DNA of 64,000 nt, taken from a virus. The position numbers and the translations under genes are program-made. The stretch lies in the IMG/VR virus record IMGVR_UViG_3300020462_000003, positions 1 to 64,000 of that record; one strand, written 5' to 3'. Below the pieces are notes generated by a model that was not told the origin of the DNA, did no database searches, and worked only from the letters and a program-made list of their open reading frames with translations. This document shows positions 1-21,331 of this stretch, piece after piece; positions within the stretch are counted from its first letter, which is position 1, and each line of letters opens with the position of its first letter.

Positions 1-39
1 CGGAACCCCCCCCCCCCCTCATCCTGAAAGGAGACCTAG

Positions 40-369
40 ATGAGCGAACAACCGTTACCCCTTTACCTGGTCAACGACCTATTCCGTAACACCTTCCTAC
101 CGATTTTCGGGCGGGTAATGCTCACGCCAGGGGCTGCAGCACATCCTATGCGTGAAGCAGCTATCTCAGCTGTGCGTGTGTTCGATCAGTTCACCGAGGA
201 CAACGACCCGTATGGGGAGCACGACTTCGGTTCGTTCGAGATCGATCACCAACGGTTCTACTGGAAGATCGACTACTACGACCAGCACTACCGCAACGGA
301 TCGGAAGATCCAACCAACCCCCTTATCACCAGACGGCTGCTGACCATCATGCTGGCCGAGGAATACTGA
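40..369 (+). CDS. DUF3768-family protein
   Basis: LVNDLFR...F..DNDPYGEHDFG...WKIDYYD...RLLTIMLAEEY signature; GGAG RBS upstream. Confidence 0.8.
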   Translation: MSEQPLPLYLVNDLFRNTFLPIFGRVMLTPGAAAHPMREAAISAVRVFDQFTEDNDPYGEHDFGSFEIDHQRFYWKIDYYDQHYRNGSEDPTNPLITRRLLTIMLAEEY

Positions 370-372
370 CCC

Positions 373-1071
373 ATGAAACTTATTGGCTTGATTGGCCGTG
401 CCCGTAGCGGCAAAGACACCGTGGCCGGTTACCTGGCCATGCAACACAAATTCACTCATGCCGCCTTTGCAGATCCTATGAAGGAGATGCTGGAAGTGGC
501 TTTCGGCAACATCAATTTCCGTGACGGTGACCGTGAACAGCCGATCGACTGGCTGGGCAAGTCACCTCGCCAACTCATGCAGACCCTTGCAACAGAGTGG
601 GGCCGTGACCTGGTTCATGAAGATCTGTGGACCATGCTCACCGAGCAGAAGGTCAAGAACGCCGTGGAGTTCAACCTTCCACTGGTGATCAGTGACGTTC
701 GTTTCCACAACGAAGCGGACATGATCCTCAAGCATGGTGGCGAGCTGTGGCATATCCAGCGTGACACTGCCGAGACGGTAAACGCTCACGTCAGTGAGCA
801 GTACTCCTGGGACACCTATCAGACCAAGACCCTCGACAACAACGGGTCTCTGGCTGAGCTGTTCCTTCAAGTCGAAGAAGCCTACCAAGGCGAGGCATTC
901 ACCCGGTTCATCGAGCAGGTGAAGGTCTTCTCTCAGGAAACCCAGCCCAAGCTCTGCCGGTGCGACCACAAGCTGCAAGGCACCGGAGCCGTGTTCTACC
1001 AATCCACCAAGCTCCTGCAGTGTTCCAACTGTCATGGCTGGCAGCAGGTGCGTAAACCCATCGAGGTGTGA
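373..1071 (+). CDS. Deoxynucleoside monophosphate kinase (T4 gp1-like) with C-terminal Cys cluster
   Basis: GLIGRARSGKDT P-loop, FADPMKE, SPRQLMQ..TEWGR, ISDVRFHNE, HVSE motifs. Confidence 0.85.
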   Translation: MKLIGLIGRARSGKDTVAGYLAMQHKFTHAAFADPMKEMLEVAFGNINFRDGDREQPIDWLGKSPRQLMQTLATEWGRDLVHEDLWTMLTEQKVKNAVEFNLPLVISDVRFHNEADMILKHGGELWHIQRDTAETVNAHVSEQYSWDTYQTKTLDNNGSLAELFLQVEEAYQGEAFTRFIEQVKVFSQETQPKLCRCDHKLQGTGAVFYQSTKLLQCSNCHGWQQVRKPIEV

Positions 1072-1072
1072 G

Positions 1073-2155
1073 ATGACTGAGATTCAAGAGATGGCTCAGG
1101 CCATCCACGAAAAGCACAAGGCACTATGGCCATTGACTTGGGCGGTTGCTGATTTCATGGCCAAGCAACTGGCAGGGGATCAAGGCTACCTTATCGTCAA
1201 TCAGCTGACCCATGAGTTGATGGGGCTGAATACCGAGCCGGTAGAGCCAGCCCCGGAGCCTCGGGATAAGCGCGTCCGCCCCAGCTACCTAGACCAAGCG
1301 GTGATTGATCGCGTTGCTGAAAGCTCTGCCCGGCATCTGGAAGAGATCGGCCGAGGATTAGCCGAGCCAGCCCCGGCGCAGGATGAGGCGTTGGCAGATC
1401 GAATGCGCGCAGCCGGGATGATGACTATCGACGAGATGCTAAGCGGCGCCCCGCTCGACCGGTTCATGCGACACGCAGGCGTCCACGACCTAGCTACTTA
1501 TGGCCAGTGGCTTGACATGAAGTGCCGCGAGTTCCTGACCATGCAGGCTAAGCGCGACCTCAACAAAGACCCCGAAGACGCTATGTACGAATGGGTAATT
1601 GCTCATGCCGCAGTCTTCCAAGAAGCGCGGATTAACTTCAATGCAGCACGCCCCGCGCAGACCGAGCGGCAGCCTTCTGTTCGCATTACGCTGGTGGAGA
1701 ATGATCCACATGGCGGCACATACATCCGGCAATGGGACAACCTAGCTGGACTTGGCGCCGGTCTTCGCCTTCTCTACGCCGCCCCCATCGCGCAGACCGC
1801 CCCGCAATTTACATCTGCCGATGAGAGCGCCGTCCGCGAGTTGTTGGCCGTCTTGAACCGAGATGGCGGACAGCACCAAGACAGCGTCGGCCTTGCTCAA
1901 GCTGCGCAAGATGCCCTTGGGGAGGTAGACAGACTCCGACAGGCTCAGACCGAGCAGCAGCCGGAGCAGAGCGGGCTGTACACCTGCATCGGCAAGGGTG
2001 GTTCGTATGAACTGATCGGGCGGGCGACTACGGCTGGCGCACTCAAGGTGACAGGCCGTTTTGCGGATGAGGTGATCGTCTATCGCGACACCGAATCAAG
2101 CGCGCTCTACTGCCGAGAGCCGGGAGATTTCCGCCTGCGGATGGCTCGTTGCTAG
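1073..2155 (+). CDS. Mosaic hypothetical protein resembling the modular Ea/Ead-like genes of temperate phages
   Basis: Long ORF with repeated linkers EPAP and AQTE(R/Q)QP; start set at ATG 1073 after GAGG. Confidence 0.6.
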   Translation: MTEIQEMAQAIHEKHKALWPLTWAVADFMAKQLAGDQGYLIVNQLTHELMGLNTEPVEPAPEPRDKRVRPSYLDQAVIDRVAESSARHLEEIGRGLAEPAPAQDEALADRMRAAGMMTIDEMLSGAPLDRFMRHAGVHDLATYGQWLDMKCREFLTMQAKRDLNKDPEDAMYEWVIAHAAVFQEARINFNAARPAQTERQPSVRITLVENDPHGGTYIRQWDNLAGLGAGLRLLYAAPIAQTAPQFTSADESAVRELLAVLNRDGGQHQDSVGLAQAAQDALGEVDRLRQAQTEQQPEQSGLYTCIGKGGSYELIGRATTAGALKVTGRFADEVIVYRDTESSALYCREPGDFRLRMARC

Positions 2156-2263
2156 CAAGCTCGGTGACACCGTTCAGATCCCCTCTGAACTGATTCAGTA
2201 ACACCCCACTCCCTTAACAACATCCTTGCATTCCCCTGGCTCGATCCAGGGGAAGGATTCGTC

Positions 2264-2614
2264 ATGTCCGTAGAAAAGCAGATCAAGGAACTACCAGAAT
2301 GGTATCCCGACAAGGTAACCGAGCAGCAGATGGCTGACATTCTGGGCACCACCAACCGCTCCCTGGAAGCCAGAAGAGCAAGGAATCAGATCCCTGAAGG
2401 GGTTTGGAACCGCATGAATGGCCGCATTTACTACAGCCGATCGAGGTTTGAATCATGGCAAGAAAGCCAATGGCACTGCCCACAGGAGTTGAACTCCACT
2501 ACGGTGCGCTCCGTATCCGATTCAGTTGGAATGGAAAACGCTGCTCCGAAACACTCGACTACCCCACGACGCAAGCGGGGATCACAGCTGCATCCCGTCT
2601 ACGCGATAAAGTAG
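2264..2614 (+). CDS. xis: Excisionase / recombination directionality factor
   Basis: Small wHTH-like N-terminus (EQQMADILGTT..SLE.RR.R...PEGVW...GRIYY) overlapping the integrase start. Confidence 0.7.
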   Translation: MSVEKQIKELPEWYPDKVTEQQMADILGTTNRSLEARRARNQIPEGVWNRMNGRIYYSRSRFESWQESQWHCPQELNSTTVRSVSDSVGMENAAPKHSTTPRRKRGSQLHPVYAIK

Positions 2615-3642
2615 TCCAGATGGCCAAGCACGGCACCCTCACCCCTGAGGCCTATGCCGAGCTGTTTCCCAACTCCACCAATGCCATGGCCGCTGTCAGC
2701 TACACCTTTGGCCAGTATGCCCAGGTCTGGCTCGACAGCCGTAACCTGGCTGCTGGCACACGGGTCAACTACCGGTCAGTGCTCAACCACTGGTGGATGA
2801 AGTACCTGGCCACAACACCCCTGCACGCTATGACCACGGCATTCATGCGTGAACTGGTGGTTCGTGTTCCCTGGACCACCGATGGCGTCAAAGCCAATGC
2901 GATGAACAAGCTGAGCACCATCCTGGAGTCAGCGGTGAGTGACAAACTGATCACTGAGAACCCTCTGGTGGATCTGGACATTCCTAGACCCAAGGAGAAG
3001 ACCATTGATCCCTTCACTCAGGTGGAGGCTGAGCTGATCATCGACAAGCTGTACGCCACTGAGCATTGGCCCAGCGAGATCTATGCAGCCTTCTTTGAGT
3101 TCACCTTCTTCACCGGTATGCGTCTAGGTGAAGTGGCTGCACTCAAGTGGGATTCAGTTGAGCTGGATAAGCGTCGTGTGCTGGTTCGCCGTACGGTTGC
3201 CCAGAAAGAAGTGGAAGACCGAACCAAGACCAAGAAGGATCGGTATGTGTTGCTCAATGACCGGGCCATTCATGCACTGGAGTTCGCCAAGGCTTATGCC
3301 GAACGGCGACTGAAAGGGACGGGCAAGCTCACCGAGTTTCCGTACTGCTTCCCACCCAGCAAGAAGTCCCAGTACATCCAACAGACCAGTGACCTGCACC
3401 ATCAGTGGCGACCTACCCTGAAGGCACTGGGTATTCGATACCGTCCTCCGTACAATGCGCGCCACACGTACGCAACCATGTGTTTGATGGCCGGGATGAC
3501 CCCTGCCTTCATCGCCAAACAGCTTGGCCACTCGTTACAAATTCTCCTCTCTCGATACGCTCGTTGGATCGAAGGGGAAGGTGATTGGAACGAAATGGGA
3601 AAATTGAAAATTGCCCCGAAATTGGCCCGAAGCGAAACCTAA
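2455..3642 (+). CDS. int: Tyrosine integrase with N-terminal arm-binding domain
   Basis: TGMRLGE (R), TKT (K), YNARHTYA (YxxR variant of HxxR), QLGHS (H), RYARW (Y); 395 aa, intact. Confidence 0.95.
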   Translation: MARKPMALPTGVELHYGALRIRFSWNGKRCSETLDYPTTQAGITAASRLRDKVVQMAKHGTLTPEAYAELFPNSTNAMAAVSYTFGQYAQVWLDSRNLAAGTRVNYRSVLNHWWMKYLATTPLHAMTTAFMRELVVRVPWTTDGVKANAMNKLSTILESAVSDKLITENPLVDLDIPRPKEKTIDPFTQVEAELIIDKLYATEHWPSEIYAAFFEFTFFTGMRLGEVAALKWDSVELDKRRVLVRRTVAQKEVEDRTKTKKDRYVLLNDRAIHALEFAKAYAERRLKGTGKLTEFPYCFPPSKKSQYIQQTSDLHHQWRPTLKALGIRYRPPYNARHTYATMCLMAGMTPAFIAKQLGHSLQILLSRYARWIEGEGDWNEMGKLKIAPKLARSET

Positions 3643-3813
3643 CCCTCTGAAACCCGCGAGATAGAGCTTCTTGATTTCTACAGCTAACATCACCATGCAG
3701 TTCTAGGTGGGTTTTTTTGAGGTCTGTTGAACGTATTTACTGGGCTGCAGGCCCCTCAACAGCCCTCAAAAACACCCAATTGGCCCGAAAAGTGGCCCGA
3801 GATTTGGCCCGGA
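3611..3813. other. attP: arm-type repeats flanking a core that resembles the 5' end of an ABC-F gene
   Basis: TTG(G/C)CCCGAA-like repeats at 3611, 3622 and at 3780, 3792, 3804; mini-ORF TTG...TTC TAG at 3671-3706 encodes LISTANITMQF. Confidence 0.8.
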
Positions 3814-3820
3814 ATACACA

Positions 3821-3851
3821 AAGAAAAGCCCCGATATCCGGGGCTTTCTTC
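3821..3851. terminator. Bidirectional intrinsic terminator between int and the lysis genes
   Basis: AAAGCCCCG-ATATC-CGGGGCTTT with A- and T-rich flanks. Confidence 0.8.
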
Positions 3852-3883
3852 TGTCAGTTTTACTCACAGGTTCCGCTCCTTGG

Positions 3884-4306
3884 TTACGCCACTCCTTTAC
3901 GCTTCTCGAAGGTTCTGGCACCGGCATAACCCAGGTAGCCAGCTGAGAAGGTCCACCACAGTTCCTCTGGCAAGGCAGCGAATCCTTTACCTACATTGGC
4001 GAAGAACAGATCCATACCCAAAGGGTTGAATACACCGATCACCGGAGCCACAACCGTCAGGCTCAGGATCACGAAGTAGAACACGTAGAGGAAGGACGGA
4101 CGTGCCCGGCTGGTCCATGGGTCAACACTGCTGGCTTCAGCGACGATGGCCGACATGCGCGTCTCCAGTTCCTTCAGCTCACCATTCTGCTGAAGCGACA
4201 AGAGATCCAGTTGAGCCTTGGCTTTCGCCTGAGGATCTGGAATCAACTTGTCGATCAGCTTGCTGCCTACCTCAAGCAGCGAAGGCACCACGGTGAGCAG
4301 GCTCAT
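3884..4306 (-). CDS. Holin (3TM / GTA-holin type)
   Basis: KLIDKLIPDP..KAKAQL..., WTSRARPSFLYV, GYLGY..RTFEK; hydrophobic segments; next to the endolysin. Confidence 0.8.
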   Translation of the reverse strand: MSLLTVVPSLLEVGSKLIDKLIPDPQAKAKAQLDLLSLQQNGELKELETRMSAIVAEASSVDPWTSRARPSFLYVFYFVILSLTVVAPVIGVFNPLGMDLFFANVGKGFAALPEELWWTFSAGYLGYAGARTFEKRKGVA

Positions 4307-4644
4307 TTGCAGCCCTCGTGTTCCAGGCTGAAGTGATTTCCGTCTGCAGAACTAAAACGTCCACCCCAGCAGCCACCCAGTGACTCCCAGTACTCACCTA
4401 GCTGGGTGTAGTCCTCGGTGGCAGTCAGGTACTTGCCATCCTTGAACAGGTTGAAGTCCACAGCAAGACGCTGCTTGTGAACACTCCGAGCAGCCCCATA
4501 AGCCTTCTTCTCCCCATGCTGGCCATGCAGACGTGGGTCTCGGTAGGCATCGCCAAAGGTCAGTTCATACCCATTCTGGTAGGCATACTCGATGAGCAAG
4601 CCAATCAGGCGTGTGAAGTGTCGTTGTTTGTTTCCTAGTGTCAT
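4303..4644 (-). CDS. Endolysin, M15 (L-Ala-D-Glu-type) peptidase
   Basis: AYR...SVH..RLAVD...WGGRF..DGNHFS zinc-peptidase motifs. Confidence 0.9.
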   Translation of the reverse strand: MTLGNKQRHFTRLIGLLIEYAYQNGYELTFGDAYRDPRLHGQHGEKKAYGAARSVHKQRLAVDFNLFKDGKYLTATEDYTQLGEYWESLGGCWGGRFSSADGNHFSLEHEGCK

Positions 4645-4889
4645 GACGTAAATCCTCTTACCAAGTGACTGCGAGTCCTTTCGCTTTCATAAGCCTGCTG
4701 ACAATGCCCTGGCTGCCAGAAGAACAATCGATTGATCCAGGTATGTGCAACCACCCAACGGCGTTTGGGTGACTGATCCAGTACCCCACAGCGGTAGGCA
4801 CGACTGGACAAGGTTTCGTCCGGTGTGCCTGCCAGCAGGGCATTGGCCAGTTGATCGATGGCGATCAGCACCGACAACCACCAGCTCAC
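4641..4889 (-). CDS. Small phage membrane-associated protein
   Basis: LIAIDQLANALL.G.PDETLSSRAYR...HC..AY..E motif; GTGA overlap with upstream gene. Confidence 0.65.
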   Translation of the reverse strand: MSWWLSVLIAIDQLANALLAGTPDETLSSRAYRCGVLDQSPKRRWVVAHTWINRLFFWQPGHCQQAYESERTRSHLVRGFTS

Positions 4890-5209
4890 GCTTGCACCCA
4901 CAACATGGCTTGTTCGGCACCTGCCAACGACAAGGCCTCACCCAGTTCGGTAGCTGTTACCTGGATCACATCGTTGTTAGCCAATACCCAGGTAACCGTC
5001 TCGCTGGTTGAGGCCTGCAGACCTAGAATGGCGCGAGCCATTCGAGCCTGACTCACCTCATCGCCGTCGAAAGTATTACCTGCAGCAGTAGTGACTTTGA
5101 TCGCACTGACTGCCTCAGTCCGGTCAGACTTCCACTGTTGGCGAGCTGCGAGTACGTCCTCAGCTGCTTTGTCTTCCGCTGTTTTCAGCTGGCTCCAGTC
5201 GATACTCAT
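4886..5209 (-). CDS. Tail-fibre-associated protein (DUF4376-like)
   Basis: IDWSQLKT...FDGDE.SQ.RM.RAI...WVLA.N. Confidence 0.7.
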   Translation of the reverse strand: MSIDWSQLKTAEDKAAEDVLAARQQWKSDRTEAVSAIKVTTAAGNTFDGDEVSQARMARAILGLQASTSETVTWVLANNDVIQVTATELGEALSLAGAEQAMLWVQA

Positions 5210-5553
5210 AAAACCTCCTCCGCTACTACGGGGTCTTCGATGACTTCGGGTTCCGGTTCCGGGTCGAACGGCAGCGGGATCGGCCCGTCAGCCGTGACGG
5301 TCAAAGGCTCAGGGAAAGCAACCGCCCGCGAGGGGTTCGGGCCATGCGGTAGGCGCAGCGTCAAATGCAGCTCGCCGTCAATGCGCGAGACGGGGCCAGT
5401 GATCCAGTCGGAGGCGATGGCCTCGGCTGGCAGCGTGGCGCCTTCCGGTAGCTGACTGAAGTCGAAAGTCTGACCGTTTAGGGTCAGCACGTCGCCGGCC
5501 AGGGAGGCTGTTAGTGTTTCGTCCAGGCGGACTGGGGATAGAGTGATGTGCAT
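5206..5553 (-). CDS. Tail fibre assembly/chaperone-like protein
   Basis: LSP.R.D...GDVLTLNG..FDFSQLPEGATLPAEAI...GPV.R.DG.L.LTL.LPHG, typical downstream of Pseudomonas prophage fibres. Confidence 0.7.
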   Translation of the reverse strand: MHITLSPVRLDETLTASLAGDVLTLNGQTFDFSQLPEGATLPAEAIASDWITGPVSRIDGELHLTLRLPHGPNPSRAVAFPEPLTVTADGPIPLPFDPEPEPEVIEDPVVAEEVL

Positions 5554-5985
5554 TTAGAACCACCTCCCCTTCGCCATGTACGAAGGTTTTGCGCTGGCCG
5601 TTGATATCCCCGCGACAATCCAGACAACGCAGCCTGTGGCTGCTATGACTCCTCCTGTGCATGCCCAGCAGATCGCGCTCTGTGCGTCATCCGCTCCAGG
5701 AACTACCTCGGGGGCTGAGAGAAAAGGCGCAGGGAAAGTCATGACTACGGACGATGGGCTTTGATAGATCCCACCCATGCCTAAAGTCGTGGACAGCCTG
5801 CTCGCGCTAGTAAAGCTGCAAAGCTGCGTCCCATCCGCATACCGCACGTACTCCCCATTGGCATTGCTGCCGCGCTCGATGATCGCGCCAGTGGGCGTGC
5901 CACCGGATTGGGAGACGGTGCCGAGGATGTTATCCCGCATATACCCATTGGCTGGAAACTTCGCCAACTCACGTCCGTTACTCAT
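5554..5985 (-). CDS. Orphan tail-fibre C-terminal (receptor-binding) domain
   Basis: NILGTVSQSGG.PTGAIIERGSNANGEYVRYADGTQ.C...A.GRWF; lacks any N-terminal anchor. Confidence 0.75.
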   Translation of the reverse strand: MSNGRELAKFPANGYMRDNILGTVSQSGGTPTGAIIERGSNANGEYVRYADGTQLCSFTSASRLSTTLGMGGIYQSPSSVVMTFPAPFLSAPEVVPGADDAQSAICWACTGGVIAATGCVVWIVAGISTASAKPSYMAKGRWF

Positions 5986-6388
5986 AGATCACCTCGAACA
6001 CCGGCAGCTCTGCCAGGATCTCTTCAATAGTGGGTTGGGCACGTTCACCACTCTCTACCAGAGCTAGTTGGGTGTATCCGTAATCCCAAACCTGAGAACG
6101 CCAAGCACGGAATGCCCGGCCTTCAATCTGGAACTTAGGGACACTAGGTTCCTCGGCATAGGTCACGGCAGACTTGATATCGTCATAGCCGTAGGCCTTG
6201 GCCGTGGTGTCCATGTGGGATTGGATATCGGCCATGAAGTCTTCGGCAGTGAGGATACGCACCGGGTTAAGGTGTGCCTGGACCTCTGCATCCGTCATGC
6301 GAACTAGGTCAGGCTTGATGTAAGCGTCCTGGCTACCATCAGCTTCATAAGCGGAGACTTCGCCGGTTTCTGATTTGTAGTATTTCAT
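5978..6388 (-). CDS. Tail fibre assembly protein
   Basis: MKYYK...V.AY..DGSQD..I...L..M...EV..HLNP; A.AYGYD.I.SA..YA; FRAWR..VW. Confidence 0.7.
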   Translation of the reverse strand: MKYYKSETGEVSAYEADGSQDAYIKPDLVRMTDAEVQAHLNPVRILTAEDFMADIQSHMDTTAKAYGYDDIKSAVTYAEEPSVPKFQIEGRAFRAWRSQVWDYGYTQLALVESGERAQPTIEEILAELPVFEVIYE

Positions 6389-7890
6389 TAGCGAAGTTCC
6401 TTCCAGCTTGCTATTGGCGAAGTCCCGACTAAACCTGCTGAATATGTAGCGCCGGGAGGGACAGTTGCAGATATAGCAGCATACATAGACGTAGGCACGT
6501 AGCCGCCATAGATAGTTTGATTTCCAATTATTAGATTGACAGCTCCGATATTACTTGAAGTAGGGCCAATCAATATATTAACTTCGATGGGCCTCCCACT
6601 TGTGTTTATGTAGGTGGTGCCCATAGCTCTGCTGGCCGTAAAATTCTGCCAAGTCTGATTCCATCCAAGCTGACCCTCTCGGTTATCAATACGACCCGCC
6701 AAATTCGCAGAGTCGCTCGCCAACTGAGCAGCATCGGCAGACCCGACATTCACGACAGAGCCGAACAACTTTATAACCCAGCAGCCGGTTACGTTGAGTG
6801 GGCGGGTTTCGGCAGCAGTGCGAGTAGTTCCATCTGCAAAGACATTGGCTGTAGCTCTGGGCGGTGTACCCTCCGGAGGACCGTCTAAGTTTATCTTAGT
6901 GTCCCCATAGTTTTGACCAGAGTTGTTTGCGTTTTGCGTTGGGTACAGGCCATGTCTGTGCTGTTGCAAAGCGTCACGTTGAATCTCACCCGCAACAGCA
7001 GCACTCAGCGCACCGTCACCACGCAAGAACACAGCACCCAATGACCCAGAGCTCTTACCGTTGTAGTCAGGCAGGCGGAACGTGGTGCTACCGTCACCAG
7101 TCGAGTAGCAACCACGCTTGGTTGGATCAGCCAGCCACACCGCATCGCTGACCACCGGCACCTTGCCTGCTGCAATGGCAGCCCAGGCATCCGGGTAAGT
7201 AGCTCGGCTCAACAGCTGACCATCAGAGGCTGCACGTCCGGCACCCAGCAAGCTGCGAGACGCAATCCAGCGAACATCCAGTACCGGCTCACCGAACTTG
7301 GCTTCGGCAGTGGCCAGGCGAGACTCCACCTGCGCCGCGCTGTAGGTATCGGCCACCTGGAAGGCACCGAAGGCCTGGATCACCAGCTCGTCACCAGCAC
7401 TGGCTGCGTGCTCCAGCTTGATCTGGGTAGAAGATGACATGCTGAAGTCAGTGACTGGTTCAAGAGCTGAGCCGTTTAGGAACGCCAGGAAGGCATTCGG
7501 CGTGACGTTCAGCACTAGACCGTTGGCATCCACTCCGGTGAATATCGTCTGCCCTGCAATGGCTACGAATTTGAAGGTCGACACCACCTTCGTCAGCTTG
7601 GTGAACTCCCCTGCCGTCAACGACTGATAGGAGTAGGAACCAGCAGGCCAGGCACGAGGAGACGTGCCTTCGAGGCCGCGAACCAGACCATTAAGTGTGT
7701 TACCGCTGCGTGAGGTGTAGCTCACGATCTCGGTGTACAGCGGACTGCCCACGCTATCGGCAATAACCAAAATACCCCCTGTTAGAGGAGGCATGCGGTA
7801 AGCACCTGTTGGGTTGGCCAGTGTCACTGACACATCGGCAGATCCTAGTGGCGCTGCCAACTGAACCTGTACAAAATTCTCATAGGTCAT
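6388..7890 (-). CDS. Tail fibre with collar domain
   Basis: GDGSTTFRLPD.NG...FLRG...Q.DALQ.H.H...ETRP.NV collar; GWNQTWQ...TY.NTSGRPI tip. Confidence 0.85.
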   Translation of the reverse strand: MTYENFVQVQLAAPLGSADVSVTLANPTGAYRMPPLTGGILVIADSVGSPLYTEIVSYTSRSGNTLNGLVRGLEGTSPRAWPAGSYSYQSLTAGEFTKLTKVVSTFKFVAIAGQTIFTGVDANGLVLNVTPNAFLAFLNGSALEPVTDFSMSSSTQIKLEHAASAGDELVIQAFGAFQVADTYSAAQVESRLATAEAKFGEPVLDVRWIASRSLLGAGRAASDGQLLSRATYPDAWAAIAAGKVPVVSDAVWLADPTKRGCYSTGDGSTTFRLPDYNGKSSGSLGAVFLRGDGALSAAVAGEIQRDALQQHRHGLYPTQNANNSGQNYGDTKINLDGPPEGTPPRATANVFADGTTRTAAETRPLNVTGCWVIKLFGSVVNVGSADAAQLASDSANLAGRIDNREGQLGWNQTWQNFTASRAMGTTYINTSGRPIEVNILIGPTSSNIGAVNLIIGNQTIYGGYVPTSMYAAISATVPPGATYSAGLVGTSPIASWKELR

Positions 7891-8204
7891 TTATTACGCA
7901 CCTTGATCTTGAACTCGACTTCTTTGGTCCGGTCTTGTTCGGTCAGAACAACACAAGTCACGATGTAGTCCATGAAGTTAGTACCGCCCCCGATCCAAAC
8001 TTTGAACCGTTTAGGATCGGCCCCCATGATCACGTACTCAGGGTGAACACCGGGACCTACAACAAGTGTGGGCTGCTCTTCAGCAACACTGGTTACCGTG
8101 ATAGTTACTGTTTCAATGTCGTCAAACGGAATGGATGAAAACCAATCCGCCATCTCTACATCATAGTCGAGAACTTCATTCGGCTGCTTAACAAATACTT
8201 CCAC
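7887..8204 (-). CDS. Tail fibre adaptor-like protein
   Basis: KQP.EVLDYDV...W...VWIGGG....Y.VT...T...R..E motif; position in tail cluster. Confidence 0.65.
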   Translation of the reverse strand: MEVFVKQPNEVLDYDVEMADWFSSIPFDDIETVTITVTSVAEEQPTLVVGPGVHPEYVIMGADPKRFKVWIGGGTNFMDYIVTCVVLTEQDRTKEVEFKIKVRNK

Positions 8205-8213
8205 GGAATCACC

Positions 8214-9458
8214 TCACACTTTAATAAGTCGTGGCTGTTCCGGCACATCGATAAGTCTGACTTCTTCCAACAGCACAACTGTGCGATCGGCAGGAGCTTT
8301 AGCTATATCGTTTACCTGAATGAAGCCGGTGGCAGTGCAAGTACCTTCAGAAGTACTCGACGCGAATTGAGTCTTGGTTGGAACTCCAGACACTACTGCT
8401 TCAGTGAGTGCCGGACTTCCTTGGATATCCAACTGCACAGTACTGACTTGCATACCCAGGTAGGCGTTAGCTGTACCAGACCTGTTGTAGCTTCCTTGTG
8501 CGTACCCACCTCCTGTTGCATAGGAGATGGAGTTGCCTTTCAGTGCCCAACGGTATTCAGCCAAGGCGTATGCAGTGGTCTTCCCTCCACCAACACCAGT
8601 CACACCTGTCTGAGTACCCAATGCAATACCACGGCCTTTGGCTGTGACATGAGCAAAACCCCGTACCCCTTTGGTATGGACAGGTTTGGCCGAGCTGGCT
8701 TGAGCCTTCGAGCTGACAGACTGGATCTGGTAAACCTGGGTATTGCTGATCCAGGCAGAAGCCATGGAGACAGCAGCCCCCATCAACTCGAATTCTCGGA
8801 TGCCTCCACGAGTGACCGCTGCGTCAACCAGGTGTGTTGCTTCAGCCAGCGCATCTGTGCCTGCACCACCGGAACGACGGCATTCACCCTCAGCATGACT
8901 GGAGGTATGCGCGTGTGCCCCGCCACCTGCAATCAGAATGCACTTGGCTTGTCCGAAGGCATTGGCTCTGCCATCGGTACGCCCTACGTGATAGGTAGTG
9001 CCGAACGCATCAGCACGCGCCCGTACAGGTTGGGTCTGGGCGTACTCGTAGACCTGCCCTTCACCTTCTGCCGAAGCGTATGCCCACATCAGTGTCTGTT
9101 TGACACGGGTACGCTTGCTGGCAAGACCGGAATAACTGAACAGGGCATCCCCCTGCCCTGCCAGGAAGAACTCAACCGAAGGCTTGGCAATGCCTTGGGC
9201 GATACCCTCTGCAGACACATAGCCTGAGAAGTCGCACTGGGCCGAACCCTGAGCCAGGCAACTAACAAGCGCTTGTGTTACAGGAATCAGTTGTTTGGTG
9301 GCTTGAACAACAGGCGTCGCATTCGCCTGCGTGTTACCTGCACCGTAGCGAGTGACTTCCGGAACGGCCACTGCGGTGGCGAGCACAGCTGCAAACCCTG
9401 TTGCCAGGATCTGCCCAGAAGTTGCACCACCAAAGAGTGACCGACCGAAGATCATCAT
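8214..9458 (-). CDS. Ala/Gly-rich virion (tail appendage) protein
   Basis: 414-aa ORF, A/G/T-rich, in the tail cluster. Confidence 0.6.
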   Translation of the reverse strand: MMIFGRSLFGGATSGQILATGFAAVLATAVAVPEVTRYGAGNTQANATPVVQATKQLIPVTQALVSCLAQGSAQCDFSGYVSAEGIAQGIAKPSVEFFLAGQGDALFSYSGLASKRTRVKQTLMWAYASAEGEGQVYEYAQTQPVRARADAFGTTYHVGRTDGRANAFGQAKCILIAGGGAHAHTSSHAEGECRRSGGAGTDALAEATHLVDAAVTRGGIREFELMGAAVSMASAWISNTQVYQIQSVSSKAQASSAKPVHTKGVRGFAHVTAKGRGIALGTQTGVTGVGGGKTTAYALAEYRWALKGNSISYATGGGYAQGSYNRSGTANAYLGMQVSTVQLDIQGSPALTEAVVSGVPTKTQFASSTSEGTCTATGFIQVNDIAKAPADRTVVLLEEVRLIDVPEQPRLIKV

Positions 9459-9464
9459 GCTGGG

Positions 9465-9869
9465 TTACGCCAGAGTGATGGTCAGGGAGCCAATCGGGAA
9501 CGACAGTACGTCAGTCGGATCGAGGGTCTTAGGGTTCAGCAGAGGTGCGTGATACAGCAGGTTGCCACTGTTCTGTGCATCGAAGATACCCCAGTGAGTG
9601 ATGACCTTCTGGGTATCAGCGATCGGTGGGAAGACCAGGTTTTTGGTGTTACTTGTCGATCCGTTGGACGGTGCTGTGAAACCATCGGACGACACGGTGG
9701 TGTGGGCACGTTGACGCAAGTAGGCACTGTCGACCAACTCAGCGCCTGTACCGGCATCCGTTGGATCAGCAGTAAAGAGAGCAACGAAAACACTGCCTCC
9801 GGTAAAAGTACCACCACGCAACGTGGCATTTACCAGAGCATTTTCGAGGTAATCAGAAAAGGCAGACAT
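9465..9869 (-). CDS. Minor tail protein
   Basis: MSAFSDYLEN...VALFTADP...THWGIFDA..SGNLL; GGAG RBS before ATG 9869. Confidence 0.7.
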   Translation of the reverse strand: MSAFSDYLENALVNATLRGGTFTGGSVFVALFTADPTDAGTGAELVDSAYLRQRAHTTVSSDGFTAPSNGSTSNTKNLVFPPIADTQKVITHWGIFDAQNSGNLLYHAPLLNPKTLDPTDVLSFPIGSLTITLA

Positions 9870-10014
9870 AGAGATCTCCAGCAACAATAAGGATGGCAAC
9901 TGTGAGCGCGGCCTAAGTGTTGCTGGAGATGAACTCTCTCAGTCTCTTAATCCACCCATACATGTTCGGGAGGAATCTATATTCCGAGGGGTACTAGGTC
10001 AAATTAGGTATCAC

Positions 10015-10833
10015 TTACATCACTTGAACCGCAAATACTTGAGGCCCGCCTGTTTGCTGCTCAAGCAAACGACCAATCTTGTCGGTTGCAATACCACCAT
10101 GTGTAGCAATACGGTCTACGTCCAACTTAACCAGCCCGCCAACCGCTGCTCGAATAGTGCCGTGTTGGGAGAATCCAAATCGAACCGATCCCCAAGCCAG
10201 GTTGAAGTTGCCTTGATAGACCTGAAACCCAGTCAAGTTGGACACCAGAAGACCGTGCTCTCCATCGAACCCGTAGTTCCAAGGAAGTGCGTACTCACGC
10301 CAGCCGTAAGAACCCCCTGTTGCTTGCCAGCCTTTAAGGTGTTCGCGTAAACGTAGAATCTTGGTGCCACTGTCGAAGGTAAGTTTGCCTTCTTCGTTGA
10401 ATACCCGGAGGCCCCACCGTTCATTGGAGGGGATCACCATATCCATACGCACCACAGCGTATTTCCATCCAATATGAGGAATGCCTTGATACTGCCCACC
10501 GTAAGGAAGATCAAACACATGTTTATACGCGATCTCGAACCCTGACCAGGCACCTGGACTACCGATAGGCTGGTAGGAATGAACAGCCCCTTGAGGGGAG
10601 TCAGGGATCATAACCACCAAGGGTGGCTCGATGGAATTGATTACCGAAGGGAAGTATGCCCGGATCAACATCCCGTAGTAGTAATCGTTGTAGACGTAGA
10701 ACCCCCTATTAGAGTTGTAGAACAGCCCCTCTGCATAGTGCATCGTGCCCCGTGCTACAACTGAAAGGGTCACATGTTGGTCATCTACAACAATCGACCC
10801 TTTGTCATTGTTGATCTGGAATCCGTAACTCAT
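10015..10833 (-). CDS. Tail tip protein
   Basis: Duplicated (Y/W)G.....G...(F)DS motif typical of genes following J-like proteins. Confidence 0.6.
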   Translation of the reverse strand: MSYGFQINNDKGSIVVDDQHVTLSVVARGTMHYAEGLFYNSNRGFYVYNDYYYGMLIRAYFPSVINSIEPPLVVMIPDSPQGAVHSYQPIGSPGAWSGFEIAYKHVFDLPYGGQYQGIPHIGWKYAVVRMDMVIPSNERWGLRVFNEEGKLTFDSGTKILRLREHLKGWQATGGSYGWREYALPWNYGFDGEHGLLVSNLTGFQVYQGNFNLAWGSVRFGFSQHGTIRAAVGGLVKLDVDRIATHGGIATDKIGRLLEQQTGGPQVFAVQVM

Positions 10834-11171
10834 GACAAGGCCACCAGGACAATATCGCAACTGCAGTCCATCAACCCTGGTCCTGTTTGCGATGAGGGAA
10901 TGGAGATAGGCTCCAGAACCAGATAGCCATCGTAAGGCGTCACAATAGGAGGGTTGTATCCACGGTGGCCTTCAGGACCTGAATGCCCGTAGCGTGTGCG
11001 CGCCTGGACAATGACAGCGTGATTGCTTCTGCATTTAGGAGCAGACACCCAAAGGGCTGAGTTCCGCATACCTGCGTACACCCTGACGATATCGATCACA
11101 CGCAGCGACAGGAACTCGGAATCGAATACCACCCCACCGTTTTCATTCCAGCATCGAATACCATAACTCAT
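10830..11171 (-). CDS. Tail tip protein
   Basis: MSYGIRCWNENGGVVFDS motif; ATGA overlaps at both ends. Confidence 0.6.
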   Translation of the reverse strand: MSYGIRCWNENGGVVFDSEFLSLRVIDIVRVYAGMRNSALWVSAPKCRSNHAVIVQARTRYGHSGPEGHRGYNPPIVTPYDGYLVLEPISIPSSQTGPGLMDCSCDIVLVALS

Positions 11172-12430
11172 GCCCATAGATCTCCGATTTGAACGCGCAG
11201 CCTGCCGCTGCCGTCATACACCTTGGTGGCATTATTGGTATCTACCTTTCGGCCACGACCTGGGGTTACACCGTTGTTCTCGAAGACCCCCGATCTATCC
11301 AACTTCCACCCTGAATAGCCTGGGGAGTAATTGCTTGACTGAATCGCCCCTGACACTTTGGCGAAGTCCAGCTCCAAATAGTCTGCTTTCAGTTTGCCGT
11401 CTTGCACCATGACGGAACCATCGTCTGCACGCAGCTTGGTAAACACCAGGCTCCGTACAACAGCCTGATCAATAAACACCTCATCGTCCTCAACGATGAA
11501 AGGTTTGACTCGATTCTTGGTACGACCTACCCAGAAGCGATCTACGTCGAAACCGGCTTCCACGGAAGTGCCGTCGTTGTACACACCGAAGCCACCAATC
11601 AGACCATTTACGTCGACTTGTGCGGTGTACAGAGCACCGATCTCCTTGACCGTACCGTTCACCGTTTCGATCTTGGTCTCAAAACGCTGCTGCACTGAGG
11701 CAATCTCATCGCCTAGCTGGCTCTGAGCTGTGGTGATCTGCTGGGCCAATGCCCCGTCTCGATTAATACGAGTAGCAGTCTCTTCCTGCACGGCTGCAGA
11801 TACGTTGTTGCTATGAGCCTGGACCGTATTGATTGCGGTAACCAGGGACTCTTCAGCCGTAGCCCTGGCCACTACCTCTTCCTGCAGCAATGCACGGGAG
11901 TGCTCAGTGAAGGCCACCACCTCGTTGTAGGCGACACCTAAGGCGTCGTCATACTCAGCCAACATCCGCAGCTCTTTATCAATCTCCAACTTATTGGTCT
12001 GGATCATCCCGATCTCAGTCTTCAAGGATTGAGCCAGGACACCTGAATCAATCTGATCCGTCAGCAGCTCTAACATCTGGGTGATGGTGGGCCTGGCTGT
12101 AGCAGAGGCCGGGCCAATCATTGGACCTATCGTGCCATTCACGGAGACGATCTGAATCCAGTAGTAATACTTGATCAGTGTTGCCGTGGTGGTCCGATCG
12201 TAGAAGTAGTTACCTGCGACGATCTTGTGACGTACAGCAGAACTCTCAGCAGGTGCTGTACTTCGATAGACAATCACATGTGCAACTGCATGGGGATTGA
12301 TTGCAGGATAGGTCCACTCAACATCAATCCCCCCGAATGCCGAAGTAGCAGTCAGGATTGAGTTATTATCCGGGTCCCCCGGCTTGGGGAAGTTCCCTCC
12401 CCCAGTTCCACATACCCATCCTTCAGACAT
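11168..12430 (-). CDS. Host-specificity J-like / DUF1983 tail protein
   Basis: FnIII-like N-terminus, coiled coil, YTAQVDVNGLIGGFG, IQSSNYSPG.SGW.LD, G.LRVQIG. Confidence 0.75.
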   Translation of the reverse strand: MSEGWVCGTGGGNFPKPGDPDNNSILTATSAFGGIDVEWTYPAINPHAVAHVIVYRSTAPAESSAVRHKIVAGNYFYDRTTTATLIKYYYWIQIVSVNGTIGPMIGPASATARPTITQMLELLTDQIDSGVLAQSLKTEIGMIQTNKLEIDKELRMLAEYDDALGVAYNEVVAFTEHSRALLQEEVVARATAEESLVTAINTVQAHSNNVSAAVQEETATRINRDGALAQQITTAQSQLGDEIASVQQRFETKIETVNGTVKEIGALYTAQVDVNGLIGGFGVYNDGTSVEAGFDVDRFWVGRTKNRVKPFIVEDDEVFIDQAVVRSLVFTKLRADDGSVMVQDGKLKADYLELDFAKVSGAIQSSNYSPGYSGWKLDRSGVFENNGVTPGRGRKVDTNNATKVYDGSGRLRVQIGDLWA

Positions 12431-12508: not shown

Positions 12509-13153
12509 ATGAAAGCCGATTACATTACCCACATGGGTGACGACCTGTTGGTTGTCAATTCCGCTCGCGTATCGTTCTCGAAAGAGTCGGACTTCGATAT
12601 CGACGGAAACCTGGATTCCCGTGATCAAAAGTTGATTACTTACCTTGCTGCTCACGGACACTGGACACCCTTTAGCCATCCACAAATCACCCTGCGTGAA
12701 ACAGTCCCGATCTTCGTGGCCCGTCAGCGTTTCAAGCACATGGTAGGATTCACTTACAACGAAGTGTCTCGTCGCTACGTGGATGACACTCCAGCCTTCT
12801 ATGTGCCTGAAGTCTGGCGTAGCCGTCCTGAAGGCAGCATGAAGCAGGGGAGCGGTGAAGCCCACAAAGATCAAGGCTTCTACACCAAAGCGTACTCGGA
12901 ACTCATGGACTCGCTACGCGAGTGCTACGAATCCATGATTAAAGATGGTATTGCGCCGGAACAAGCCCGCATGGTTTTGCCGCAATCCATGATGACCAGT
13001 TATTACGTAACTGGCTCTCTCGCAGCCTGGGCACGCGCGTATAAGCAACGCATGGATGCACACGCTCAAGTTGAAATTCAGGACCTGGCCAAACAGTGGG
13101 GAAATGTACTTGAACCCCTGTTCCCAATTTCATGGAAGGCATTGACTCAGTAA
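12509..13153 (+). CDS. thyX: Flavin-dependent thymidylate synthase
   Basis: VNSARVS, HWTPF, PIFVARQ..KH...NEVSRRY, EQARMVLP, HAQ.EI. Confidence 0.95.
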   Translation: MKADYITHMGDDLLVVNSARVSFSKESDFDIDGNLDSRDQKLITYLAAHGHWTPFSHPQITLRETVPIFVARQRFKHMVGFTYNEVSRRYVDDTPAFYVPEVWRSRPEGSMKQGSGEAHKDQGFYTKAYSELMDSLRECYESMIKDGIAPEQARMVLPQSMMTSYYVTGSLAAWARAYKQRMDAHAQVEIQDLAKQWGNVLEPLFPISWKALTQ

Positions 13154-13199
13154 CTAGCGTAAGTGTTCTAATACACTCGCTGTAACTCTCCTCACCTTT

Positions 13200-13244
13200 A
13201 AGCCAGTGCCCTGAACTTTTCCTGCAGGGCATTGGCTTCTTTTT
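13200..13244 (+). terminator. Intrinsic terminator after thyX
   Basis: AAGCCAGTGCCCTG...CAGGGCATTGGCTT followed by a T-run. Confidence 0.75.
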
Positions 13245-13266
13245 ATCCGCTCTACGAGGTTCCTAT

Positions 13267-14298
13267 ATGTCTTTGGACATTATTCCGCCTGCGTTGAGCC
13301 AAATTGAATCCCCAACCGATTCATACGTGGCTCGCTATCCGTGGGCAGCAGAGTTTGCTGTCGAACAACAATCCATCTTCTGGCCTGCTGAAGAGTTGGG
13401 TGTTGATGAAGACGAAGATGACTTCCGTACCAAACTTACCGACGGTGAGTTGCACGGTGTTCTTTTCGCCCAATCAATCCTCACTCAGTACGAGCTGATG
13501 ATCGGTGGCGAGGAACTATGGGGTGGCAAGATCGCCCGCATGTTCCCACGTCCCGAGATCCAGCGGATGTGTGCCTGTTTTGCCCACGTCGAGCTGGGTA
13601 GCCATGCACCCTTCTACGACCTGGCAAACAAGGTGCTGGGCCGTGCCACCGACGACTTCTACCGTCAGTGGAAGAGCGACCCGATCCTGGCTGAGCGCAT
13701 CGCCTTCATCAGCCAATGTGCTGGTAGTGCCAATCCGTTGGAAGTCACTGCAGCCCTCGCCTTCCTCGAAGGTGCCGTGCTGTTCAGCGTCTTTGGTTAC
13801 TTCAAGGGTTTCAATGCCCGTGGCCACAACATGATCCCGCACTTCGTGTCCGGTATCGATGGGAGTGCCAAGGACGAGAACTTCCACTCGATCGCCTCTG
13901 CTCGCCTGTTCAACCAGTGCCGTGCAGAACGCATGGAGCTGGGTAACCACACCCCTGCTCACGACGAAGCGTTGAACCAGGTCATCGACCGGATGAGCCA
14001 GACCGTCTACGAGCATGAGCTGCGGATCATCGACCGTATGTTCGAAGTGCCGGGCAACCGCGTGGTGGCTCAGGACGAGCTGGTGCATTTCCTCAAGGAC
14101 CGCATCGACGTGGTGCGTAACCGTCTGGGCCGTCCTGCCCAGTTCGACCTGAAGAAAGGCGAGATCTCCAACTGGTTCTACCAGCAGCTTTCCACCGTGA
14201 AGGTGCCTGACTTCTTCGCAGCAACCCAACTGCAGTACACCCGCAACTGGGCCAAGCACAAACTCACCTTCCGTAAGGAGCTGGCTCATGGCGTTTGA
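13267..14298 (+). CDS. nrdB: Ribonucleotide reductase class I beta subunit
   Basis: Ferritin-like ligands QYE, ELGSH...Y, FLEG, DENFH; C-terminal DFF......Y. Confidence 0.9.
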   Translation: MSLDIIPPALSQIESPTDSYVARYPWAAEFAVEQQSIFWPAEELGVDEDEDDFRTKLTDGELHGVLFAQSILTQYELMIGGEELWGGKIARMFPRPEIQRMCACFAHVELGSHAPFYDLANKVLGRATDDFYRQWKSDPILAERIAFISQCAGSANPLEVTAALAFLEGAVLFSVFGYFKGFNARGHNMIPHFVSGIDGSAKDENFHSIASARLFNQCRAERMELGNHTPAHDEALNQVIDRMSQTVYEHELRIIDRMFEVPGNRVVAQDELVHFLKDRIDVVRNRLGRPAQFDLKKGEISNWFYQQLSTVKVPDFFAATQLQYTRNWAKHKLTFRKELAHGV

Positions 14299-16015: not shown

Positions 16016-16084
16016 CAGACGCCCTCACGGGCGTTCGGTGACGAACCAGTAGAAGAGGTTCAGTTATGACTTCAAGGAAGAACA

Positions 16085-16366
16085 GGTCACTGCATCGGAG
16101 CGCAGCACAAGGCGAGCCTGCGAGCCGACAGTGCGGAGGCGACGTTGCAGTGACCATTCATCGGTAGTGGCAGTAAGCCACCCTACAGTTGATCCAGATC
16201 AAGCAGATTCAGTGACCCCGTTCACTAGAATGCGCGCCCTCTGCTGTACGGGACTTTGAATAAGTCCTTTCGCTTGTACAACTTTCCAATCCTCGACTCG
16301 AACCTCCGCACTGGCGGCGCACTCGCTGCGCTCGACGCCTTGTGCTGCGTTCGCGCCTCGGATTGG
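16085..16366. repeat. Pair of inverted ssi/PAS-like hairpin elements (candidate origin)
   Basis: CGCAGCACAAGGCG...CAGTGCGGAGG at 16101-16139 (+) and 16303-16349 (-), each closed by its own stem. Confidence 0.6.
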
Positions 16367-16434
16367 TGAGGGTTTTTGTGGGGGATCGAGCCTGTGTCTG
16401 GCCTGCCGAAGGCACAGGGGAGATCCCCTTTATA

Positions 16435-16449
16435 TATGCGTCGTTTTCG
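16435..16449 (+). promoter_or_regulatory. 15-mer TATGCGTCGTTTTCG, copy 1
   Basis: Identical copy at 52801-52815; both intergenic and just after a hairpin plus T/A-run. Confidence 0.55.
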
Positions 16450-16459
16450 AGAGGTCATC

Positions 16460-16912: not shown

Positions 16913-16962
16913 ACCAACACTTGAAATAAACTGCATGGACGCAATAACCCCAGGAAGTAACC

Positions 16963-17504: not shown

Positions 17505-17541
17505 GTCTGGTGTGTGGGTCGCCTTCATTGAAGGTAGTCCC

Positions 17542-18516: not shown

Positions 18517-18534
18517 CCACAACAGGAGTGCTCC

Positions 18535-20676: not shown

Positions 20677-20789
20677 GTGTGTCCACCTACCCCAAGTTCT
20701 CTTGGGGTTCCTTTTCTTATTCAGAAGCCCGGCTAAGTCATGACGACTACATGGACTCACTCGGCTTCTGTTTATCGGAGATAGCAAAC

Positions 20790-21281: not shown

Positions 21282-21331
21282 CCTTCAGGTGCCCTCCGGG
21301 CACTTGGCGAATTCCCACCAAGGAGTCTGAA

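Follow-up and report, generated by a model that had tools for sequence, protein, structure and literature searches.

Evidence for a temperate N4-like phage lineage that integrates at the 5' end of an ABC-F ATPase gene in Stutzerimonas

The stretch of DNA analysed here (the window, 64,000 nucleotides) is part of a complete N4-like phage genome of 74,266 bp and very probably contains a functional module with which a temperate phage integrates and excises itself. The original prediction that the phage is temperate finds strong support in the sequences of close relatives, namely junction contigs, a provirus record, relics in isolate genomes, and an integrase together with an N4-type capsid gene in Stutzerimonas stutzeri. 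Free (attP) and integrated (attL/attR) configurations both occur among these close relatives, in Stutzerimonas. The intact integrase (Int), overlapping excisionase gene (xis) and attP that had been placed within 2264-3851 are all found there, in a genome that encodes, as also predicted, a virion RNA polymerase (vRNAP) and a split RNAP II.

The vRNAP, a hallmark of N4-like phages, corresponds to a 3582-aa open reading frame (ORF) on the minus strand (24626-35374). Its tblastn alignments to virion RNA polymerases annotated in N4-like phages of Pseudomonas cover 78% of the query at 29-30% identity (E ~1e-125), and it qualifies as a giant virion RNAP, for which packaging in the virion is predicted. 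Two adjacent plus-strand genes (54072-55052 and 55307-56563) match phrog_2166 'N4-like RNA polymerase' (5.3e-103) and phrog_2051 (5.8e-149), and encode the two subunits of the heterodimeric RNAP II of Schitoviridae-type phages. An N4 gp56-type major capsid protein (phrog_1357), a portal (phrog_1216) and TerL (phrog_38) are present; capsid homologues at 92% identity bear the NCBI name 'N4-gp56 family major capsid protein'. A repeat search found four short plus-strand hairpin motifs of the GGC-TTC-GCC type with a 3-nt loop in the region 50971-52845 (copies at 50971, 51359, 52406 and 52817). All lie upstream of early genes and, judging by the early promoters known in N4, are candidate vRNAP promoters. 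The giant vRNAP, split RNAP II, gp56-type capsid, portal and TerL, along with rIIA/rIIB, DNA polymerase, primase and SSB, are common to N4 and lytic N4-like isolates, the nearest of which are Litunavirus-type phages of Pseudomonas aeruginosa such as Pa2, YH30 and PAP02. N4-like isolates are described as strictly lytic. In contrast to these isolates, from which its vRNAP is so distant, the present clade possesses xis-int-attP, and its replication genes are split by this cassette and a minus-strand block of lysis and tail-fibre genes. A megablast search of positions 1-8000 of the window against 50,697 phage records returned a single match, to 237 bp of the endolysin gene.

The xis gene (2264-2614, plus strand) encodes a 116-aa protein that matches phrog_9668 'excisionase' (E=1.1e-35) over positions 13-114 of the 114-position profile, which places a recombination directionality factor next to int; its match to Pfam HTH_17 is marginal (E=3.5e-4). 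The ORF is unbroken, at 116 aa, in six of six N4-like relatives. Its last 160 nt overlap, in a different frame, the int gene (2455-3642, plus strand), whose 395-aa product is a lambda-type tyrosine integrase with an N-terminal Arm-DNA-bind_2 domain (PF12167, E=6.7e-12) and a C-terminal catalytic Phage_integrase domain (PF00589, E=1.8e-18). The catalytic residues R, K, (Y)xxR, H and Y line up with those of XerD and XerA. The first His of the HxxR motif is replaced by Tyr, which is probably tolerated, because integrated relatives have the same residue. All seven of seven int copies are intact, with a dN/dS of 0.05-0.13 against six relatives and dS reaching 0.5 across the clade. At the level of sequence comparison, both Int and Xis are thus intact and under purifying selection.

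The attP site spans 3608-3811, in close agreement with the predicted 3611-3813, and has arm repeats at 11-bp spacing on either side of a 33-bp core (3671-3703). Within the 3' end of int, the repeat search located the P arm (3608-3641, plus strand) as two direct repeats, TTGCCCCGAAA and TTGGCCCGAAG, spaced by 11 bp; relatives retain them, and in the 74-76% group they differ in step with the Int variant. The P' arm (3778-3811, plus strand) contains three direct repeats, TTGGCCCGAAA, GTGGCCCGAGA and TTGGCCCGGAA, also from the repeat search, and recurs in an attP-form relative (L016) and in an attL contig (L081). An arm-binding domain in Int and arm-type repeats flanking the core suggest a site of the lambda type. 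Between core and P' arm, the same search revealed an inverted repeat (3708-3778) of 23 nt with 91% complementarity and a 25-nt spacer, which may be a bending-factor site or an insulator hairpin. A bidirectional intrinsic terminator (3824-3850), with an 11-bp stem and six G-C pairs, separates int/attP from the convergent lysis genes.

Unusually, the phage does not attach at a tRNA gene; its site is the start of a conserved gene for an ABC-F ATPase, whose 5' end the phage rebuilds. A tRNA-type attP was rejected, as ARAGORN detected no tRNA and no tmRNA in the window and the core is protein-coding instead. Read on the plus strand (3671-3706), it consists of a TTG start and ten codons of the host ABC-F gene (M-ISTANITMQF), followed by a phage TAG stop, and duplicates the first 11 codons of the chromosomal target (NCBIfam NF011646). 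The attP block exactly identical to attB is 3686-3703. That the core is shared with chromosomal attB and that attL/attR hybrids exist is established via relatives, not for the exact phage.

In the mechanism that we propose, the genome would circularise after infection, and Int, expressed from the far end of the rightward operon of replication genes, would link the arm sites to the core and exchange strands with attB. Exchange would fall inside ACCGCCAACATCACCATGCAGTTC in the prophage represented by contigs L004 and L081, and within the exact-match block in the present window. In the integrated prophage, int would adjoin the host gene, and because the phage supplies the start and 11 codons, integration would not alter the ABC-F protein at attR. 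At attL, the native 5' end, now displaced, would meet the phage TAG stop, the long inverted repeat and the strong terminator, which may together shield the prophage from host transcription. Xis, acting with Int, would reverse integration.

Junctions of the predicted attL and attR kinds were found, all of them in relatives, at 80-99% identity in the module. Four attR contigs (L002, L003, L004 and L006) match attP up to 3703 and then run into a 529-aa ABC-F gene (NF011646, 1023 bits), the first 600 nt of which occur at 100% identity in a Stutzerimonas genome; the Int of L002 is 99% identical to that of the window. In the attL contig L081, nucleotides 1-233 match, at 99.6% identity, the part of the Stutzerimonas chromosome that precedes the ABC-F gene; the core, P' arm, terminator, holin and tail genes follow, the host thus joining phage sequence from 3704 onwards. 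L081 and L004 share one source metagenome. Prophages containing a vRNAP, which the original prediction had expected between halves of attP, are represented by two IMG/VR contigs. One (G002) is a 74,640-bp record classed as 'provirus' and 100% complete, with an open 3419-aa vRNAP; it is colinear with the present genome, except that it is opened precisely at attP, between the stop codons of int and of the holin gene. The other (G001, 65.7 kb) has a vRNAP and terminates in int plus 107 nt of the ABC-F gene.

Isolate genomes point the same way. An S. stutzeri NCBI assembly encodes an Int (WP_279641525.1) and an N4-gp56 capsid protein (WP_279641451.1), both 92% identical to ours, and, like G002, appears to carry a full prophage; co-location of the two genes is judged from their origin in contigs of equal length (284,342 bp each) and from accessions 54 numbers apart (MDH1236485.1 and MDH1236539.1). 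Int and N4 capsid are paired likewise on a 335,095-bp contig of a Pseudomonas sp. MAG. S. kunmingensis 28M-8 has a truncated Int and a 330-bp relic of an N4-like gene adjoining ABC-F. Among 26 readable Stutzerimonas species genomes, an integrase 3' end is found at the ABC-F site in eight, and attB is empty in 11. In the integrated relative that comes nearest, Int is 99% identical to ours and the flanking genes have ~92% nucleotide identity; an integrated copy of exactly this phage was not seen. For the empty-attB contig of the source sample, the 30 nt upstream have no match in 401 Pseudomonadaceae genomes, and only the conserved coding part found matches (363 of the 401).

Could the arrangement be an artefact of assembly, with the integrase region mis-joined to an N4-like genome or the junctions chimeric at the shared 33-bp sequence? 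The source contig is metagenomic and has no terminal repeats, and Logan contigs in two libraries break exactly at the core, which marks it as a graph branch point. However, six independent IMG/VR contigs, drawn from different samples, all have the order rIIB, dNMP kinase, cargo, xis, int, attP, holin, positions 1-8000 of the window lie unbroken on one 58-kb Logan contig, and the libraries of a second study (2019 versus 2014) contain 100% of the sampled words. The chimeric assembly of 1073-3850 against which the original prediction had cautioned is excluded on these grounds. In the 2019 libraries, phage Logan contigs end at the core beside host attB-side contigs, a break pattern equally compatible with attP plus attB and with attL plus attR; depth differences between the two phage contigs of these RNA libraries are not interpretable at contig level. 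Metagenomic junction contigs alone are not proof, because the 33-bp identity of attP and attB could mislead short-k assemblers. That weight is carried by the isolate genomes described above, in which Int adjoins ABC-F with an N4-like relic or derives, like the N4 capsid, from a contig of 284,342 bp. With this evidence, we consider an assembly artefact extremely improbable.

The genes on either side of the module are, as had been predicted, of phage origin. Upstream are rIIA, rIIB and dNMP kinase genes, followed by a variable cargo ORF of 373 aa (1034-2155, plus strand), located between the dNMP kinase gene and xis, which has no Pfam match and whose sole match, at its C-terminus, is to phrog_12584. 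The content of this slot is different in each relative: blastn homology is lost at ~1077-2131, where other ORFs are found, and restarts at 2131-2195. Reading the sequence against the ORFs of relatives identified a remnant ORF 3' end, KLGDTVQIPSELIQ with its stop codon (2157-2201, plus strand). An ORF with this ending precedes xis in six of six relatives, and it is with the remnant that the conserved cassette begins on its left side. To the right of attP, the first phage DNA, and hence the attL-proximal end of the prophage, consists of minus-strand genes for a holin (3884-4306; Pfam GTA_holin_3TM, 1.5e-24) and an M15 endolysin (4303-4644; Peptidase_M15_4, 1.1e-8).

The xis-int-attP cassette (~2283-3813) is ~74% identical in nucleotide sequence (blastn) to PS-1-like lambdoid temperate phages, IMG/VR contigs of which contain the whole stretch with the same core. 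Since the entire cassette is held in common, it was probably acquired horizontally by this N4-like clade, the direction of transfer being our inference. A tyrosine integrase is absent from two complete but distant N4-like genomes (G067 and G068), which we count as evidence that the integrase would be a clade-specific gain. Int has the same architecture as, and is 52% identical to, the integrases of the group of Pseudomonas phage JBD44, with 43% identity to PS-1 and 33% to Bordetella phage BPP-1; PS-1 and BPP-1 have an annotated overlapping excisionase, as in the present phage. JBD44-, PS-1- and BPP-1-type phages are temperate, 40-57 kb in size and devoid of a phage RNA polymerase, and PS-1 relatives carry Bet/Exo-type recombination genes, whereas the present module resides in a 74-kb vRNAP-dependent genome of the podovirus type.

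The foreign origin of the cassette raises the possibility that it integrates without making the phage truly temperate. A recently captured lambdoid module might be a dead end or a source of rare accidents, leaving defective prophages that are neither kept silent nor re-induced, since no immunity system would have come with it. The cassette is clearly PS-1-like, a repressor or Cro-like gene was not found, and several chromosomal copies are decayed relics. The N4-type capsid gene has no match in 67 Stutzerimonas species-representative genomes, so intact lysogens are rare among species representatives; a scan of species-representative genomes with Int recovered only relics and one non-N4 prophage, and no intact N4-like prophage. 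Yet the strong purifying selection on Int, across a clade with such synonymous divergence, argues for sustained use, and near-complete genomes coexist in free and integrated form. The provirus G002 retains an open vRNAP and full colinearity, and Xis, which matters only if excision happens, is conserved too. We therefore regard the dead-end explanation as improbable and favour a functional module in a temperate phage.

How lysogeny would be controlled is less apparent. The absence of an obvious cI/cro pair, which had been predicted, held after PHROG and Pfam scans: no cI-, Cro- or XRE-type protein is present among ~60 proteins encoded by early, middle and small ORFs, a set from which a 178-aa minus-strand ORF (52976-53512) that overlaps plus-strand ORFs, two with counterparts in relatives, was left out. 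The window has no SOS box (CTGT-N8-ACAG), and the region 900-4400 has no consensus sigma-70 site that could serve as a promoter of xis-int. The only regulator lead from the repressor search is a generic helix-turn-helix (HTH) protein (56784-57173), which matches only generic HTH clusters in Atlas, with scores of at most 0.86, and whose gene has a control region to itself, bounded by terminators and containing repeated 11-mers. A phage CsrA homologue is encoded at 60915-61091.

In N4, early genes need vRNAP and middle genes need RNAP II, and the vRNAP gene is itself a late gene, transcribed by the host polymerase. A prophage of this type may be largely silent by default, as its polymerase cascade would lack vRNAP, and restart would need vRNAP, or another component of the cascade, to be expressed by the host polymerase. 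By analogy, de novo vRNAP synthesis would be the obvious route and would involve no paradox, because the prophage keeps the vRNAP gene, which in N4 is read by the host polymerase. We tentatively suggest, as an idea that we consider rather unlikely, that N4-like prophages need no classical repressor: the cascade would lock itself once injected vRNAP has decayed, and clade-specific regulators would set both the choice between lysis and lysogeny and the restart by gating access of the host polymerase to vRNAP or another cascade gene. The HTH protein and the CsrA homologue are candidates for this role.

LUZ100, a T7-like Pseudomonas phage with temperate features, is described as another case of an integrase in a supposedly strictly lytic family that depends on its own RNA polymerase (PMC10134795). 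It belongs to a different family, the Autographiviridae, and makes its polymerase after infection instead of injecting it. Integrated N4-like phages as a general phenomenon are already published: mining of metagenomes by Zheng et al. (2023, mSystems 8:e00197-23; PMC10654107) yielded 54 N4-like genomes with lysogeny genes and 40 integrated proviral regions, and led these authors to argue for a lysogenic strategy in N4-like phages, with hosts named mostly as Moraxella. The novelty claimed in the original prediction was to this extent overstated. Like the present phage, the genomes of that survey are N4-like (Schitoviridae-type), come from IMG/VR and possess lysogeny hallmark genes; the terms attP, attB, excisionase, repressor and stutzeri do not occur in its main text. 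Beyond the survey, our analysis contributes the att sites at the ABC-F 5' end, Stutzerimonas as a host, sequences of free, attL and attR forms, relics, carrier isolates and the link of the cassette to PS-1-like phages.

In textbooks, N4 stands for infection that begins with the injection of a phage RNA polymerase; phages related to it serve as therapy candidates on the understanding that they are 'safe, strictly lytic'. The lineage described here indicates that membership of the family is no ground for assuming the absence of lysogeny. As it alternates between free and integrated forms in Stutzerimonas, a culturable genus, the silencing and restart of a vRNAP cascade become directly testable. 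A self-locking cascade, if true, would constitute a lysogeny switch of a kind undescribed for any phage.

The gene content assigns the window genome to the N4-like phages. A 3582-aa ORF (24626-35374, minus strand) is 29-30% identical, over 78% of the query, to the virion RNA polymerases (vRNAPs) of Pseudomonas N4-like phages, and two neighbouring genes match the two RNAP II subunits, in agreement with the original prediction of a vRNAP and a split RNAP II. Capsid, portal, TerL, rIIA/rIIB, DNA polymerase, primase and SSB are also of N4 type; capsid homologues at 92% identity carry the NCBI name "N4-gp56 family", and a small hairpin motif (3-nt loop) occurs four times upstream of the early genes. 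The vRNAP is ~34% identical to that of relatives whose remaining genes are 80-97% identical. In most relatives the genes adjoining it (35386-40076) likewise diverge more than the rest, and the divergence of the vRNAP region points to modular replacement within the clade.

The predicted intact tyrosine integrase, overlapping xis and attP, with phage genes on both sides, are all present at 2264-3851. The xis gene (2264-2614, plus strand, 116 aa) matches the whole profile of the PHROG excisionase family phrog_9668 (E=1.1e-35) and overlaps int (2455-3642, plus strand, 395 aa) by 160 nt in different frames; both products are intact in six relatives. Int contains an arm-binding domain and a tyrosine-recombinase catalytic domain, in which alignment to XerD/XerA places the catalytic residues R, K, R and H and the Tyr nucleophile. 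The HxxR box has Tyr instead of the first His, a substitution also found in integrated relatives, and dN/dS against six relatives is 0.05-0.13 (dS up to 0.5). A repeat search located two arm-type repeats at 3608-3641 and three arm repeats at 3778-3811; a 23-nt inverted repeat occupies 3708-3778 and a bidirectional terminator 3824-3850. The module is flanked on the left by rIIA, rIIB, a dNMP kinase gene and a variable cargo ORF, and on the right by holin and endolysin.

The attP core (3671-3703) reads TTG-ATT-TCT-ACA-GCT-AAC-ATC-ACC-ATG-CAG-TTC and is followed by a TAG stop; no tRNA was found in the window. Four related IMG/VR contigs (L002, L003, L004 and L006) are colinear with the window across xis and int up to 3703, beyond which they run into a complete ABC-F ATPase gene (1023 bits on NCBIfam NF011646) starting MISTANITMQFGAKPLFENVS. 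One Stutzerimonas genome matches the first 600 nt of this gene at 100% identity, and 61 of 61 Stutzerimonas genomes contain it. By sequence comparison, these contigs are identified as attR junctions and attP is confirmed to carry a replacement 5' end for an ABC-F gene. A further contig, L081, is assigned as the attL matching L004, from the same metagenome: its nucleotides 1-233 match the Stutzerimonas sequence upstream of ABC-F at 99.6% identity and terminate in a host-type core; TAG and the P' arm come immediately next, ahead of the terminator, holin and tail genes. Host codons ATC TCC are retained in the attL core and the synonymous phage codons ATT TCT in attR, which places the exchange in the L004/L081 prophage to the right of the variant codons, within ACCGCCAACATCACCATGCAGTTC. 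The attL/attR junctions that the original prediction called for were thus found, in relatives.

Relatives likewise provide the anticipated vRNAP-containing prophages bounded by the attP halves. G002 (IMG/VR, 74,640 bp), classed as a "provirus" and 100% complete with an open 3419-aa vRNAP, aligns colinearly with the window genome, most blocks at 72-93% nucleotide identity, and is opened exactly at attP, with the int stop codon at one end and the holin stop codon at the other. G001 (65.7 kb, with a vRNAP) terminates in int and 107 nt of the ABC-F gene; G003 (74.5 kb) is in the attP form, like the window. Among cultured hosts, NCBI lists an S. stutzeri Int (WP_279641525.1) and an N4-gp56 capsid protein (WP_279641451.1), each 92% identical, both from a contig of 284,342 bp; a spacing of 54 between their GenBank protein numbers roughly fits the 40-odd genes counted from capsid to int along the prophage. 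In a Pseudomonas sp. MAG, Int and capsid are paired in this way on a 335,095-bp contig. In S. kunmingensis 28M-8 a truncated Int (82% identity) adjoins the ABC-F gene, preceded in colinear order by a 330-bp piece 74% identical to a vRNAP-neighbour gene; S. stutzeri 28a22 retains a relic of the Int C-terminus. The N4-type capsid gene was found in none of 67 species-representative Stutzerimonas genomes.

The ABC-F 5' end is an integration hot spot. Among 26 Stutzerimonas species genomes with readable sequence upstream of the ABC-F start, 11 have an empty attB, eight carry the 3' end of an integrase of the window Int family, and seven show a second upstream type without integrase. Six of these seven loci (L051, L060-L064) have the phage-type codons TTG ATT TCT at the gene start, which could reflect natural variation or be left over from earlier integration and excision; the seventh (L078) has ATC TCC. 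Of 401 Pseudomonadaceae genomes sampled, 363 conserve the 5' end of the ABC-F gene.

A chimeric assembly across 1073-3850, the alternative raised against the original prediction, is ruled out by an unbroken 58-kb Logan contig covering the region in the probable source run and by libraries of a second study; this check rests on contigs and bears on chimerism, not on integration of the exact window phage. In the same probable source run, an empty attB lies on a separate host contig of 8.6 kb. Libraries X2-X5, four in number and from the second study five years later, contain 97-100% of sampled words; in X2 and X5 the core is the exact break point of the phage contigs, with host attB-side contigs alongside. 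A freshwater run contains the int-core-ABC-F junction of a relative. X2-X5 are metatranscriptome libraries of a marine study (2019), and unequal contig depths left and right of the core in these libraries (59 vs 127; 59 vs 89) hint at RNA-derived coverage, although contigs alone are uninterpretable on this point. The window covers bases 1-64000 of an IMG/VR virus record of 74,266 bp, which is classed linear and CheckV-complete and has no terminal repeats. The record's ends are assembly ends, not biology, because position 74252 is joined to 369 in related contigs and a 58-kb Logan contig crosses window position 1. A DUF3768 gene (40-369, plus strand; Pfam E=4.9e-31) sits at this junction; it is missing from most relatives, in which 74252 is joined directly to 369, and the L006 copy is 71% identical.

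Two more distant, complete N4-like genomes, G067 (which has terminal repeats) and G068, lack a tyrosine integrase and keep their replication genes together, whereas in the window clade DNA polymerase, rIIA/B and the int cassette are parted from exonuclease, primase and SSB by 3884-12430 (minus strand) and 12509-24365 (plus strand), comprising a minus-strand lysis/tail-fibre block and thyX-nrdBA. The cassette is therefore a clade-specific gain. An Int at 74-76% identity is encoded by another set of IMG/VR contigs (31-54 kb), relatives of the temperate Pseudomonas phage PS-1, which match window 2283-3813 at ~74% nucleotide identity, with the same core and a different arm-repeat sequence. Between the dNMP kinase gene and xis lies a mosaic slot whose cargo differs in each relative; window 2157-2201 holds the last 14 codons of an ORF that precedes xis elsewhere, the rest being gone. 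Elsewhere in the genome, plus-strand ORFs at 58435-58770 and 59672-60331 match, respectively, the N-terminal (profile positions 7-119) and C-terminal (127-353) portions of a single PHROG ATPase family, phrog_1297, and the ~900-nt gap fits an intron with a homing endonuclease.

As predicted, no cI/cro pair is evident: PHROG and Pfam scans of ~60 proteins revealed no cI/Cro/XRE-type regulator. The window contains no SOS box, and a promoter scan around xis-int found no sigma-70 consensus. For a lysogeny switch, the only regulator-like lead is a 129-aa HTH protein (56784-57173, plus strand), present in the window clade and absent from integrase-free relatives. Over 56564-57173 (plus strand), the RNAP II genes are followed by a terminator, a 220-bp control region and the HTH gene. 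The control region contains AAGACAGTCAT twice, as exact copies at 56659 and 56723, together with a GGAGAACTTCTCC palindrome, and is largely kept in G001-G003, G003 being without the second repeat copy. A 58-aa CsrA/RsmA homologue (60915-61091, plus strand; Pfam CsrA E=6.9e-19), found in three temperate relatives and not in two integrase-free N4-like genomes, could act post-transcriptionally on genes of the host or the phage. Both proteins are switch candidates, as leads only. In N4, early genes need vRNAP and middle genes RNAP II; late genes, vRNAP included, use the host polymerase and phage SSB. Given this order, with vRNAP a late gene, an N4-type prophage could be silent by default and restart via de novo vRNAP synthesis.

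Integrated N4-like proviruses were already known from a 2023 mSystems survey of IMG/VR, which described 54 N4-like genomes carrying lysogeny genes together with 40 integrated proviruses, the hosts being mostly Moraxella; its text has no att-site, excisionase, repressor or stutzeri content (PMC10654107). Our literature search found no paper on N4-like prophages of Stutzerimonas. The window lineage adds to the known proviruses a host that can be cultured, a mapped attachment site and probable carriers among isolates.
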